Source: Escherichia phage AV111. Taken from it: DNA of 64,000 nucleotides. Numbering within the stretch: position 1 is the stretch's first letter; every line of letters begins with the position of its first letter. Shown piece after piece: positions 37,833 through 41,318 of this stretch. A model generated the notes under the pieces. It did no database searches. It worked only from the letters and a program-made list of their open reading frames with translations, and was not told the DNA's origin. The translations under genes and the position numbers were made by a program. Location: the sequence record OR352941.1, one strand, 5' to 3'.

Positions 37833-38138
37833 TTATTTTTTCCAACTCAACAACTTGTAGTGCCCTTCATTCGTACGAGGTTTATCCCAAGAAATACTAA
37901 TATATGATTCGCTGTCAATAGAAGTCGCCGGGTTTTTCTCTACCGTAAGACCTTCACTTTCCAGCCACTCAATAGTATTTGCGCATAAATCTGAAGAACA
38001 CCTAATCGGAAACCGGCAAGATTTTTCACCTTTAGCTGCAGCGTTATACATCTTTTCTAAAATACGCTTTTGCACGTTTTTAAAAATAGTTTCAGCAGAT
38101 TCTTCAGATTTTTTATTCAGTTCAGTGTAAAGACTCAT
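37833..38138 (-). CDS. hypothetical protein
   Basis: 101 aa; early promoter 38167-38194. Confidence 0.5.
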   Translation of the reverse strand: MSLYTELNKKSEESAETIFKNVQKRILEKMYNAAAKGEKSCRFPIRCSSDLCANTIEWLESEGLTVEKNPATSIDSESYISISWDKPRTNEGHYKLLSWKK

Positions 38139-38166
38139 AACATTTTCCTCTGTGGTTGATAAGTCT

Positions 38167-38194
38167 ATAGTATCATGTCCTTAGAAGAAGTAAA
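38167..38194 (-). promoter_or_regulatory. early promoter
   Basis: Minus GTTTACT-N16-TACTAT. Confidence 0.5.
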
Positions 38195-38228
38195 CATCTT
38201 TATGAAATATTTTTATGCCCTAGATACC

Positions 38229-38255
38229 AAAAAGCCCCAACCTTTCGGAAGGGGC
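38229..38255 (-). terminator. intrinsic terminator
   Basis: Minus GCCCC-UUCCGAAAGG-UUGGGGC then UUUUU; near-identical to 38763-38790. Confidence 0.55.
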
Positions 38256-38261
38256 ATTCTA

Positions 38262-38525
38262 TTATTTAATTTGTTTAGCAGACCAGATACGGTCTTTAAT
38301 AAGTTTTTGGATATCTTCAACATACTCAAGGCTATGAGCGTGAGGATTATCTTTGAAGCTATGTGCTCGTGCCAGTTTCTGGCCTTCTGTTTTGATTACT
38401 AAAAGCTCTTTAAGAATTGCTTCATACTTAGAAATAATTCCTTTGGCGATATTTTTTTTCTTGAGCTGCTTTAGGGTCCGCTTTTGGCGCAGGTGCTTTA
38501 CCTGTAGCTTTCTGGAACAATTCAC
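38262..38525 (-). CDS. hypothetical basic protein; may be the shifted-frame continuation of 38428-38727
   Basis: 87 aa ORF overlapping the IP-like ORF by 98 nt across a T8 run at 38452-38459. Confidence 0.3.
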   Translation of the reverse strand: MNCSRKLQVKHLRQKRTLKQLKKKNIAKGIISKYEAILKELLVIKTEGQKLARAHSFKDNPHAHSLEYVEDIQKLIKDRIWSAKQIK

Positions 38526-38727
38526 CTGATGCAGCTAGGCTTTTAAAAACTCGGCTAACAGTATTAGCATTAGTAAAACCTTCGGCTTTAAAATCTCTAA
38601 TAAAACGGAAACGTTCTTCATCAGAGGCGTCTTTGTAAGAATATTTACCTGCTTGAATTGCTGCAATCGCAGCGGCTTTTACATCTGAACTAGATTGTTC
38701 AGTCAAAAATTCAGCGTATGATTTCAT
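38428..38727 (-). CDS. internal-protein-like (capsid-targeting leader)
   Basis: 99 aa; N-terminal MKSYAEFLTE; Ala/Lys/Pro-rich C-terminus. Confidence 0.5.
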   Translation of the reverse strand: MKSYAEFLTEQSSSDVKAAAIAAIQAGKYSYKDASDEERFRFIRDFKAEGFTNANTVSRVFKSLAASGELFQKATGKAPAPKADPKAAQEKKYRQRNYF

Positions 38728-38762
38728 GTTGCTTTTCCTAAGTTAATTAACTTATCTATTTA

Positions 38763-38790
38763 TTATTATGCCAAAAAGCCCCGACCTTTC
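38763..38790 (-). terminator. intrinsic terminator downstream of the structured-RNA region
   Basis: Minus AGCCCC-UUCCGAAAGGUC-GGGGCU then UUUUU. Confidence 0.55.
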
Positions 38791-39110
38791 GGAAGGGGCT
38801 AAGCCTTGCGGCAACCTTGTCGGGGTTCCACCTGCTAAGGCAAGTGTTTGTACGAAACGCCGGGATTCGAACCCGGTTATTAAGTAGTTGACGCTACTCA
38901 ATATTTTTAAAAGGCCATATCTCGACCATATCCGAACGTTCCGTCAAAAACGCTACTCGGCTTACGGCAAAGATATTTCCTCGAATCGATAATTCGGTGC
39001 GCCGTTTCTGCTGTGATGTAAGGGGATATTAACGAATCATAAAGATTTATTAAGACCAGTCCTTACTCAGGGAACATCAGTCCGACGACTTACCGGTAGC
39101 GACCCGGCTT
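38791..39110 (-). ncRNA. putative structured stable RNA region with tRNA-like acceptor/T-arm element (38851-38941)
   Basis: No ORF on either strand; perfect T-arm CCGGG-UUCGAAU-CCCGG at 38858-38874 flanked by pairing CGGAACG/CGUUUCG; further hairpins; bounded by tRNA-Arg region upstream and terminator 38763-38790 downstream. Confidence 0.35.
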
Positions 39111-39111
39111 C

Positions 39112-39456
39112 TTATTTTGGCATATCATCAATTTGCTCTCGACGCCGACGCCATAGATTAATCGCTTCATTGGCACATTCTGCGTTTGGTATATGACGGC
39201 AATAATATAATGATTCGCGTTTCTGGAACCGATGTTGTAATGGGATTTCGTTTAAAAGGTCTTTACGGTCAAAGTATTCAAAACTAGTTAACCCGGAACG
39301 GTTTTTAATGAACTTCCAATGTCCAAATTCATTTTGAACATAGATGTAATCGGCATGTTGGTATAACAAATTAATCAATCGGTCTGAAATAACTGTATCA
39401 TGTTCGTTAAAATAAAACGTTAAATCATGAACTACCAGATAAATATTGCCTTTCAT
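39112..39456 (-). CDS. hypothetical protein immediately downstream of tRNA-Arg
   Basis: ATG 39454-39456 with SD GAGGAAA; 114 aa. Confidence 0.45.
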   Translation of the reverse strand: MKGNIYLVVHDLTFYFNEHDTVISDRLINLLYQHADYIYVQNEFGHWKFIKNRSGLTSFEYFDRKDLLNEIPLQHRFQKRESLYYCRHIPNAECANEAINLWRRRREQIDDMPK

Positions 39457-39474
39457 ATTTTCCTCACTTAAAGT

Positions 39475-39550
39475 TGGTGCCTCTAGAAAGATTTGAACTC
39501 TCACCATTAACCTTAGAATGATTATATGCTATCCATTACACTATAGAGGC
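39475..39550 (-). tRNA. tRNA-Arg (anticodon UCU), CCA encoded
   Basis: Hand-folded 76 nt cloverleaf: acceptor GCCUCUA/UAGAGGC, D-stem GUGU/GCAU, anticodon stem UAAUC/GGUUA with loop AUUCUAA, T-arm GAGAG-UUCAAAU-CUUUC. Confidence 0.75.
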
Positions 39551-40201
39551 AATTAAATTATTTACAATATCTTCTTTATAAACTTCAGCATAATGAAGTT
39601 CATATATTTCCCATCCTAATGATTTTATAATATCATGGCGTTCTTTATAATAAGGGGCCAAAATCTTTTTCTTAGGATTGGAGTAATGTTGGTTTCCATT
39701 AACTTCAATAATAATCTTTTTATCTATTAAAGCAATATCCGTGCAATACGCTCGGTTTTTAACCGGTTGGTATTCTTCAATAAATGAAATTCCATTTTCT
39801 ATTAATTTAGATTTCAAAAATTCACAAGGCACAGATTTAAATTTTGTATTTTTCTTCCAAGGATGTTTATCGGGGTTTTCATTCAACCATTTTTTCCGAG
39901 CATTAGATATTTTTATTCTAGCTTCCTCAGAGTGTTCTCTACCTAATGAAGCGGCTGACAATTTTTGTCTAGTCTCTTCCGAAATTACTACAGGAACACC
40001 AGTCTTTTTAGATACAACATACTGGTTTAAATTACCTGAAGCTATACGTGCTTTATTCATTGCTGCAATGGCTGATTTAGAACTTTCTTTATACAATTCC
40101 AATTTAGGGTTGGATTTACACCATCTAGTGTGGTTAGCCATCCATCCTTTAGGTTTATTAGAAATATCAAATTCCATATTACAATGTTTACAAATGCTCA
40201 T
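39536..40201 (-). CDS. homing-endonuclease-like protein: Zn finger + NUMOD3-like repeats + DUF559/Vsr-like PD-(D/E)XK nuclease domain
   Basis: ATG at 40199-40201 (track start is TTG 40207); CKHC...WC; SEETRQKLSAASLG and SEEARIKISNARK; C-terminal IDKKIIIEVNGNQH...ERHDIIKSLGWEI; sits between tRNA genes. Confidence 0.6.
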   Translation of the reverse strand: MSICKHCNMEFDISNKPKGWMANHTRWCKSNPKLELYKESSKSAIAAMNKARIASGNLNQYVVSKKTGVPVVISEETRQKLSAASLGREHSEEARIKISNARKKWLNENPDKHPWKKNTKFKSVPCEFLKSKLIENGISFIEEYQPVKNRAYCTDIALIDKKIIIEVNGNQHYSNPKKKILAPYYKERHDIIKSLGWEIYELHYAEVYKEDIVNNLIASIV

Positions 40202-40275
40202 TACCAATTATCTCCTATAAAATATAGGAGTATTTATTATTTGGATAGAGCACTTAATTTACTTCGTTTAAATTA

Positions 40276-40347
40276 CTGGCGCACTTTGACTCGAACCAAG
40301 ATAAAGGAGTTAACAGCTCCCCGTAATAACCTTTATACGATGCACCA
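40276..40347 (-). tRNA. candidate tRNA-Asn (anticodon GUU), CCA not encoded
   Basis: Hand-folded 72 nt: acceptor UGGUGCA/UGCGCCA (one GU), anticodon stem GGGAG/CUCCU with loop CUGUUAA, T-loop UUCGAGU; one G-A mismatch in T-stem, 3-bp D-stem. Confidence 0.4.
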
Positions 40348-40353
40348 TTTGTT

Positions 40354-40428
40354 TGGTGACCCTGGCTGGTTTCGATCCAGCTACCTATCAGTTATGAGCT
40401 GACAGCTCTCCCATTGAGCTACAGGGCC
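40354..40428 (-). tRNA. tRNA with CAU anticodon (elongator Met or Ile2), CCA encoded
   Basis: Hand-folded 75 nt: acceptor GGCCCUG/CAGGGUC, D-arm GCUC-AAUGGGA-GAGC, anticodon loop CUCAUAA, T-stem GCUGG/CCAGC. Confidence 0.7.
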
Positions 40429-40507
40429 TAAATAACTTTCTATTATGAAAGGCACTTTAGAGCACCTTTGGTAATAGAGGGTATTAATTAATAATAACAC
40501 ATAATTC

Positions 40508-41023
40508 TTAAAGCAAATCAATCATTTTAACAGTTGGCAAAACGATTTCTTCTTCAATATAAGCAAATTCAACACATTCAACTACACGCAAGAAATCATA
40601 ATCATAATATTCAGAAGCATGACCAAGAATATCAATGAGACCTTCTGATACCAAATATCCATTCTCACGGAACAGGTCGAATACACGCGATTCGTCTTCT
40701 TCAGATTTATTACCAAGGTCGACTTCAATATCAAAGACCTTTTTAATGAATTCTGGATAAAGCTGGTCCGAGAACAGTCCTTCAACTAAGTATTCATAGA
40801 TTAAAAGTGAGCAATCACTGAATGGTGTATTACCACAGTAACGTTCAGCTTTAGTGCTGGAATGACGACTCTTAAATTTCTTCAAAAGATATTTAAACTG
40901 TTGGAGCTCATGCTCTTCCACACCAAATAACGTTTTGGTTTTATAGTTGTCGCCGTCATTTTCCCAAGTAGTGACATCAATTACGTAACCCTTAGGAATT
41001 GTACTGCCTAAACAAATATTCAT
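40508..41023 (-). CDS. hypothetical acidic protein
   Basis: 171 aa ORF. Confidence 0.5.
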   Translation of the reverse strand: MNICLGSTIPKGYVIDVTTWENDGDNYKTKTLFGVEEHELQQFKYLLKKFKSRHSSTKAERYCGNTPFSDCSLLIYEYLVEGLFSDQLYPEFIKKVFDIEVDLGNKSEEDESRVFDLFRENGYLVSEGLIDILGHASEYYDYDFLRVVECVEFAYIEEEIVLPTVKMIDLL

Positions 41024-41027
41024 TTAC

Positions 41028-41318
41028 TCACCGTACCATATTAATGTAATTATATTCAATGCAACGTAATTTCAAAGGATTCTTGAAAATATCATATTCA
41101 AGAGGACCTTTTTCTGTTTCAATAAAGAAATCAAAGTTCACACTATTAAATTTGCGGTCTTCCCAAAGTAATTTAACCTGTGAAGATGAACGGTCGACGT
41201 AAACCTTTTCAACTTCAAAGTGGGTCAAAATACCATAGTAATCGACTAGTGCTTTAGCTGCACGTTGATCGCTCTCATATCCGTTCTCGACAGATTTTAC
41301 TTTAGCATAAAGAATCAT
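41028..41318 (-). CDS. hypothetical protein
   Basis: 96 aa ORF. Confidence 0.5.
   Translation of the reverse strand: MILYAKVKSVENGYESDQRAAKALVDYYGILTHFEVEKVYVDRSSSQVKLLWEDRKFNSVNFDFFIETEKGPLEYDIFKNPLKLRCIEYNYINMVR

Follow-up and report, generated by a model that had tools for sequence, protein, structure and literature searches.

In the EDxHD family of homing endonucleases, NUMOD DNA-binding modules lie N-terminal to a Vsr-like nuclease domain, and the T-even phage enzyme Hef has been placed in that family (PMC3239194). The active site of I-Bth0305I is made up of E170, D196, N208, H213 and D222 (PMC3239194), and Dassa et al. (2009) described Vsr-like endonucleases from metagenomic sequence, two of them with tandem NUMOD3 modules, together with hairpins in the 5' leaders (PMC2677866). 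A different nuclease occupies the transfer RNA (tRNA) genes of phage T4: segB is placed between tRNA-Arg and tRNA-Ile (PMC2988022), and SegB spreads neighbouring tRNA genes (PMC2330249), is enriched near tRNAs and drives a tRNA amplification that defeats Septu (PMC13096335, 2026). Here I report on an open reading frame (ORF) of Escherichia phage AV111 (OR352941.1), found in a stretch of 64,000 nucleotides (nt) that I call the window. It very probably encodes a free-standing Vsr-like (EDxHD) homing endonuclease, predicted to bind and cut DNA, and it sits between tRNA-Asn and tRNA-Arg(UCU) in a segment that most related phages lack (Table 1).

The architecture is that of I-Bth0305I (PDB 3R3P), a nuclease whose cuts have 2-nt 5' overhangs, and of the Dassa et al. 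enzymes, with NUMOD modules preceding a C-terminal nuclease of Vsr fold. The Asn at the 'x' position of the active site is shared with I-Bth0305I (N168 here, N208 there), whereas the hairpin in the 5' leader and the tandem NUMOD3, the latter known from two published members, recall the Dassa et al. enzymes. A preliminary description of this locus, drafted from the letters of the DNA, had called the domain combination unusual. Since NUMOD modules N-terminal to a Vsr-like domain are a published family architecture (PMC2677866, PMC3239194), that word has to go; the rest of its interpretation, a homing endonuclease with a Vsr-like domain, stands, and neither of the two findings that it named as contrary evidence, a C-terminal domain of another fold or a gene present at this site in all relatives, came up. 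The endonuclease is thus new as an annotation, but its kind is already known. Unlike EDxHD members, the protein has an extra C2HC zinc finger and a strongly conserved NPDKHPWK...KFKSVPCE extension before the core, and its gene is free-standing in a tRNA array, not in a recA intron or between split-intein halves. Vsr mismatch-repair and DUF559 proteins (PDB 1CW0, 3HRL) differ in that the DNA-binding modules are an addition here and in that the present gene belongs to a phage mobile cassette and not to a cellular repair locus.

Hef (phage U5), for which the Hef-like F-LimIII of LIMEstone1 served as proxy, is likewise the product of a free-standing endonuclease gene of a T4-type phage and falls in the Vsr-like family. 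The nuclease domain of F-LimIII aligns with that of the window protein, with the PCE, DI and IE-x-NG...H motifs in register (hhalign E = 1.2e-4) and the D, N and H residues aligned, and its Pfam matches include MTES_1575, DUF559 and Vsr. Unlike the window protein it has DUF7487 at its N-terminus, and the loci are different ones: hef cuts nrdB (PMC2988022) and F-LimIII adjoins a baseplate gene. With T4 SegB the likeness is one of place and habit. Both genes occupy the niche between tRNA(CAU)/tRNA-Ile and tRNA-Arg, an equivalence pointed out in the preliminary description and borne out by the published T4 map (PMC2988022), and in both cases neighbouring tRNA genes spread along, a hairpin covers the start region and the family is enriched near tRNAs. 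The catalytic domain of the window protein is unrelated to the GIY-YIG domain of SegB, however; SegB targets the T-psi-C motif, and its gene has no overlap with a tRNA gene, unlike the ORF described here. SegB is therefore a functional analogue only, at the same locus.

Table 1. Coordinates of the endonuclease locus in the window; bp, base pairs.
Feature	Position	Strand	Remarks
Homing-endonuclease ORF	39536..40201	-	666 nt, 221 amino acids + stop; TAA at 39536-39538
C2HC zinc-finger-like module, codons 1-30	40112..40201	-	C4-x2-C7-x16-H24-x3-C28
Two NUMOD3-like DNA-binding helices, codons 74-103	39893..39982	-	SEETRQKLSAASLG, SEEARIKISNARK
Vsr-like (EDxHD-type) nuclease domain, codons 105-221	39539..39889	-	proposed active site E127, D155, N168, H172, D190
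Mobile cassette (tRNA-Asn, leader, endonuclease gene, tRNA-Arg)	39479..40352	-	874 bp; breakpoints against gene-less Mosigviruses
tRNA-Arg(UCU), endonuclease-linked allele	39475..39550	-	ARAGORN (tct), Rfam 57.6 bits
tRNA-Asn(GUU), carried in cassette	40276..40347	-	ARAGORN (gtt), Rfam 45.9 bits
tRNA(CAU), equivalent to T4 tRNA-Ile	40354..40428	-	ARAGORN (cat), Rfam 59.4 bits
Leader RNA structure	40191..40256	-	inner hairpin pairs Shine-Dalgarno AGGAG, outer stem covers AUG
Late-promoter-like box AATAAATA	40231..40238	-	one mismatch from T4 box TATAAATA; directly 5' of hairpin arm

The reading frame and its domains

The arrangement first proposed for this locus, a frame of 221 amino acids between a tRNA(CAU)/tRNA-Asn pair and tRNA-Arg, is confirmed by ARAGORN, by Rfam (tRNA gathering score 29 bits) and by the annotated coding sequence of phage WFL6982 (QBQ76898.1, 'hypothetical protein'), whose product is 100% identical to that of the window. 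The overlap of its 3' end with the 5' end of tRNA-Arg is likewise real and comes to exactly 15 nt (39536-39550): the final four codons and the stop, GCC TCT ATA GTG TAA, are the first 15 nt of the tRNA and supply its 5' acceptor strand and D-arm. The ATG at 40201 has AGGAG ahead of it. A TTG at 40207, giving 223 amino acids, was dropped because the ATG has this Shine-Dalgarno sequence and agrees with the annotated orthologues.

An AlphaFold2 model built on an alignment of 41 sequences has a mean predicted local distance difference test (pLDDT) score of 89.6. In it the C-terminal catalytic domain takes a Vsr-type fold whose top structural match is a DNA homing endonuclease, so that the domain models as a Vsr-like PD-(D/E)XK nuclease, as the preliminary description had proposed in setting it apart from GIY-YIG and HNH enzymes. 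Pfam agrees: DUF559 scores 21.4 bits, above its cutoff of 20.6, and MTES_1575 matches weakly. The Pfam Vsr model gave no match at E <= 1, no GIY-YIG family is among the Pfam matches at that threshold, and for an HNH/His-Me motif there was no Pfam HNH match, the predicted fold being Vsr-like instead. Among the 41 homologues E127 is kept in 39, and D155, N168 and H172 are kept in all.

The N-terminal Cys/His segment and the two NUMOD3-like repeats, both noticed at the outset, also hold up. The pattern CxxC...NHxRWC is kept in those aligned homologues that have the N-terminal region, the module is modelled as a beta-hairpin and helix with pLDDT ~95, and a Rhizobium-phage homologue has weak Pfam matches to the C2H2 zinc finger. 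Residues 87-103 match Pfam NUMOD3 at E = 0.003 (17.8 bits, under the cutoff of 20.4), close to the 20.0 and 17.2 bits of orthologues; the other repeat (residues 74-87), recognised by visual inspection, can be aligned to proteins that bear NUMOD3.

Among 5.8 billion proteins searched, 131 homologues came to light. They have in common a C-terminal core of ~130 amino acids at ~50% identity, with the pattern NPDKHPWK..KFKSVPCE..F.EE..R.FSIDIA..IEVNGNQHY..YY..RHD.I...GW..E.HY, and they differ in their N-terminal modules, which are either zinc finger plus NUMOD3 or helix-turn-helix domains. Searching 1.84 billion cluster representatives with a profile extends this to 542 clusters (50% identity) at E <= 1e-30. 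Many homologues are labelled 'very-short-patch-repair endonuclease' by JGI, and the GenBank product name 'HNH endonuclease' on two others (H59, H60) appears to be a mis-annotation.

The best Pfam E-value of the window protein is that of RAP (4.4e-5), and the clade sits within tRNA transcription units; this raises the alternative that a RAP/Vsr-like domain helps to process the tRNA-operon transcript instead of cutting DNA. I consider this very improbable. The RAP score is under its cutoff (23.8 against 24.2 bits), the top structural match is an enzyme that homes into DNA, and NUMOD3 and zinc-finger modules are the DNA-binding parts of homing endonucleases. Most relatives, moreover, have the same kind of tRNA operon without the gene, a dispensability not expected of an operon-processing factor, and the cassette replacement and chimeric tRNA gene described below are events at the level of DNA.

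A cassette with two tRNA genes and its empty sites

The window comes from a Mosigvirus, an RB69-like T-even coliphage whose top DNA matches are WFL6982, WFK and F2 at 97-98%. Empty-site alleles of its tRNA region are the rule: 843 phage records match the 2.4-kilobase (kb) region and nine contain the full insert. The protein itself was found by tblastn in 38 records of a collection of 50,697 phage records, 11 of which are of E. coli phages (ten phages), and across nine records from two genera it is 98-100% identical. In the gene-less phage moha the empty site reads tRNA-Arg, 4 bp, then tRNA(CAU), and in PhAPEC2 it reads tRNA-Arg, tRNA-Asn and tRNA(CAU), spaced 4 bp apart. Homology between the window and these two phages (97%) stops at 39478/39470 and restarts at 40353, with sharp breakpoints; an 874-bp segment therefore replaced 75 or 163 bp.

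What was exchanged included tRNA genes, a point that the preliminary description had overlooked, along with the leader hairpin that sequesters the ribosome-binding site and the confinement of the clade to tRNA arrays. The tRNA-Arg of the window shares 58-62% identity with the tRNA-Arg genes resident in Mosigviruses, and the tRNA-Asn 60% with that resident in PhAPEC2, whereas each is 99% identical to its counterpart in ELT1, a Tequatrovirus. From ~39450 to ~40429 the window and ELT1 are 98-100% identical, but in the flanks identity is 63-75% in the neighbouring gene and ~81% beyond tRNA(CAU). Within the collection, the linked tRNA-Arg allele is restricted to the 11 records that have the gene. 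The tRNA(CAU), by comparison, does not differ between gene-carrying and gene-less alleles, and lies outside the replaced segment as its right-hand homology arm. Taken together, the comparisons of these genomes give strong evidence of mobility, and the gene is probably a mobile, 'selfish' one. The window's tRNA-Asn, the lowest-scoring of the three tRNAs, carries a private substitution at 40287: the 3' strand of its T-stem reads GAGTCAAAG where WFL6982 and ELT1 have GAGTCCAAG, and a G-A mismatch results.

Three relatives add to this picture. DCP548 is a Mosigvirus with an endonuclease 79% identical to the window's, and its tRNA-Arg (L010, ~2152-2227) is a chimera: the linked type makes up its 5' two-thirds (GCTTCTATAGTGTAATGGATAGCATATAATCATTCTAAGGTTAA), and the type resident in Mosigviruses its T-arm and 3' acceptor strand (AGGTGAAGGTTAGAATCCTTCTGTCTCGACCA). 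Its acceptor stem is unpaired, ARAGORN misses the pseudogene, and the chimera marks a recombination crossover within the tRNA gene. In PTE-Eco05 (L072, 301-967) an A-run at codon 64-65 is longer by one A (+1), and the frameshifted protein is cut short downstream of the zinc finger. AV110, a Mosigvirus otherwise without the gene, has beside tRNA-Arg an ORF of 177 amino acids (L004, 1264-1797, minus strand) with T5orf172/MUG113 similarity, related to GIY-YIG; the tRNA-Arg locus looks like a hotspot for nuclease genes of more than one type. The chimeric tRNA, the frameshift and the alternative nuclease are in keeping with how a homing element lives. In the resident tRNA-Arg of moha (L002, 1276-1352) and AV110 (L004, 1816-1892), the T-loop GGTTAGAATCC has an A in place of the near-universal C56 and departs from the GGTTCRANTCC core recognised by SegB.

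A frameshifted relative also raises the question of whether the gene is left over from an earlier invasion and now in decay, no longer cutting and kept along by its overlap with tRNA-Arg, which would shield its 3' end from deletion. The promoter-like box of the window, with its mismatch, could be counted on the same side. I nevertheless regard an inactive relic as quite unlikely, since every proposed catalytic residue is intact and both the protein (nine records) and the cassette DNA are 98-100% identical across two genera, a degree of identity that argues for recent transfer and not for long decay.

Association with tRNA arrays across the clade

The clade is little studied and almost confined to phage tRNA arrays, and a literature search found no paper on it or on its tRNA link. 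Among 48 non-redundant homologous loci, tRNAs lie within 3 kb of the gene in 46 and a tRNA lies within 100 bp in 34; in 19 the immediate neighbour is tRNA-Arg(tct). Of the tRNAs in these arrays that are tRNA-Arg(tct), 19/22 abut the gene, against 23/261 of the others (odds ratio 65, Fisher p = 3e-15), although the 48 loci are not phylogenetically independent and the p-value therefore overstates the association. All the homologues looked at individually are located in tRNA arrays. The order is Leu, gene, Arg in a Klebsiella phage and CAU, gene, Arg in PSD2001, each with a 15-nt overlap; in an Acinetobacter phage the gene lies between Asn and Ser, and in Providencia and Rhizobium phages tRNA-Arg(UCU) is found 18-44 nt upstream of it. 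The same setting recurs in six metagenomic contigs and in 48 IMG/VR loci, and it is shared by members that have the zinc-finger/NUMOD3 N-terminus and members that lack it. Overlap of the gene's 3' end with a downstream tRNA amounts to 15 nt in L006, L009, L016 and L040, and to other lengths in L043, L055 and L062.

The DNA-binding module has a distribution of its own. Vibrio phage Kuja gp186 (L069, 1369-2166) and Citrobacter phage CkP1_0150 (L070, 1498-2133) have the zinc finger and both NUMOD3 repeats at 27-30% identity, joined to an endonuclease-I-like nuclease domain, which suggests that nuclease domains have been swapped onto a common DNA-binding module. Both genes lie within tRNA arrays, and the 3' end of the Kuja gene overlaps tRNA-Met by 10 nt.

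In a metagenomic contig, a distant homologue (L016, 2001-2687) has its 15-nt overlap with a tRNA of CTA anticodon, an amber-suppressor type that ARAGORN labels 'Pyl'. In an IMG/VR contig, ARAGORN finds a transfer-messenger RNA (L025, 2509-2839; tag AQQQKALIT*) in the tRNA array, just upstream of the endonuclease homologue.

These distributions invite a broader reading, which I put forward tentatively. The gene may be an experimentally tractable coliphage representative of a distinct Vsr-like clade (~540 clusters at 50% identity) that homes specifically into phage tRNA arrays, preferably beside tRNA-Arg(UCU), with tRNA alleles as cargo and with several lineages fused to a tRNA gene. The clade would then be a major driver, independent of SegB, of tRNA exchange between genera and families, with possible consequences for escaping tRNA-targeting defences.

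A neighbouring explanation, which overlaps with homing and does not exclude it, is that the nuclease has been co-opted for the benefit of the phage. Like SegB, it would promote the exchange or amplification of tRNA genes, and the divergent tRNA-Arg and tRNA-Asn would be selected cargo, useful for example in escaping host defences that cleave tRNAs. The divergence of the cassette's tRNA alleles from the resident ones and the tie of the clade to tRNA arrays speak for it, as do the two precedents of SegB, the spread of surrounding tRNA genes (PMC2330249) and the amplification that defeats Septu (PMC13096335). Yet the gene is rare (11 records against the 843 that match the region), a rarity not to be expected if the trait were of strong benefit; the copy in PTE-Eco05 is frameshifted, one acquisition destroyed the tRNA-Arg (DCP548), the window's own tRNA-Asn has a T-stem mismatch, and no repeats or amplification were seen within the window. 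On balance I think co-option unlikely, though less unlikely than relic status or RNA processing.

Leader RNA, homing cycle and significance

The 74-nt leader contains an inner 8-bp hairpin, CUCCUAUA / UAUAGGAG, at 40212-40230, and folds with a minimum free energy (MFE) of -19.9 kcal/mol (z = -3.9), which none of 200 shuffled sequences reached. Folds that sequester the Shine-Dalgarno sequence and the AUG were also obtained for five orthologous leaders, from Klebsiella, Providencia, Acinetobacter and other E. coli phages (z from -2.8 to -5.4). Directly beside the hairpin stands the late-promoter-like box, of which ATAAATA is invariant in seven of seven orthologous leaders and the complete TATAAATA is present in five. 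Exact TATAAATA boxes number 7 across the window against 8.7 expected, so only the conserved position in the leader is informative; a scan of 38600-41100 for sigma-70 promoters gave 6 sites against 9.8 expected and nothing usable. A like arrangement is described for I-TevI, segB and mobE, where transcripts that read through early in infection yield no protein, whereas late ones, initiated within the hairpin, do (PMC2988022); the design is reported for Vsr-like endonucleases as well (PMC2677866). By analogy I infer that the box may act as a late promoter and that hairpin and promoter would together control expression in the T4 pattern.

A homing cycle can be proposed from these parts. The zinc finger and the two NUMOD3 helices would bind DNA, and the Vsr-fold domain, through its five proposed active-site residues, would cut it. 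In a mixed infection the enzyme would cut the tRNA region of a related gene-less phage, the likeliest place being the tRNA-Arg(UCU) resident there or the DNA adjoining it, and repair off the gene-carrying genome would copy in the cassette, the two homology arms being tRNA(CAU) and the beginning of the RB69ORF150c-like gene. It is the crossover within the tRNA-Arg of DCP548, together with the clade's preference for tRNA-Arg(UCU), that makes tRNA-Arg the candidate target, a lead and not a result. Read-through transcripts of the tRNA operon would fold the hairpin and hide the ribosome-binding site and start codon, and transcripts that the late-promoter-like box just upstream would start inside the hairpin would be translated late in infection. 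In processing the tRNA-Arg that holds the stop codon, RNase P would presumably leave a non-stop mRNA, and this loss of the stop codon may limit expression further.

Several points weigh against this reading of the gene as a Vsr-like enzyme that homes among tRNA genes under late control. Among the proposed catalytic residues, D190 is kept in only 27 of the 41 homologues, so that the final Asp of the motif, unlike in EDxHD members, is only partly conserved, and the EDxHD residues were mapped by motif spacing and profile alignment, not by residue-level superposition. HMMER searches of the PDB with the sequence or with the 41-sequence profile found no relative of solved structure at E <= 10, 3R3P included (a DNA glycosylase at E = 0.25, the best match, was judged to be chance), and the link to I-Bth0305I therefore rests on the fold, Pfam DUF559 and the motifs. 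The relation to F-LimIII is remote (hhalign probability 55%, 24% identity over 111 columns). As to mobility, the gene-carrying Mosigviruses may be one clade, in which case the 'sporadic' pattern could partly reflect vertical inheritance, and the frameshift of PTE-Eco05, lying in an A-run, could be a homopolymer sequencing error, or else real decay. The late-promoter box of the window is mismatched, and ELT1 has the same AATAAATA. Finally, a comparison of core divergence with that of the adjacent tRNA-Arg gave a Mantel r of 0.11 (p = 0.20; 20 loci), and of -0.03 without the T-even group, in a test of low power at these divergences; simple ancient linkage is therefore without support, and so weak a test does not separate repeated targeting from old linkage.

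Around the cassette, a scan of 38000-41000 against Rfam (E <= 0.1) gave, beyond the three tRNAs, one sub-threshold chance match only. A start inside tRNA-Arg for the ORF at 39112-39507, the RB69ORF150c-like gene, was dropped, as the annotated homologue begins at 39456. Further along, the minus strand at ~38750-38900 is rich in G and C and strongly folded (MFE -58.5 kcal/mol, z -3.2); it contains a T-arm like that of a tRNA (GGGUUCGAAUCCCGG) and, at 38779-38794, a hairpin of terminator type. This segment is the approximate counterpart of the 'rnaC / species 1 RNA' annotated in phage ATK47 and has no Rfam family.

Most of the phage records that were checked give the product as 'hypothetical protein', a label for which Vsr-like (EDxHD) homing endonuclease can now be substituted. 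The locus also amounts to a natural experiment in easily grown coliphages, with alleles that have and lack the gene, junctions defined to the base, a private tRNA-Arg allele that marks the cassette and one recombinant in which the tRNA was broken. The features that most deserve follow-up are the coupling of the cassette to tRNA genes and the clade-wide restriction to tRNA arrays. Should the association with tRNA arrays and tRNA-Arg(UCU) stem from the choice of target, SegB would have a counterpart in a second and unrelated family of nucleases, convergent with it in the use of tRNA genes as landing sites. Such convergence, if true, would bear both on how phage tRNA repertoires are shuffled and on the recent finding that phages evade tRNA-cleaving immunity with the help of a tRNA-associated homing endonuclease.

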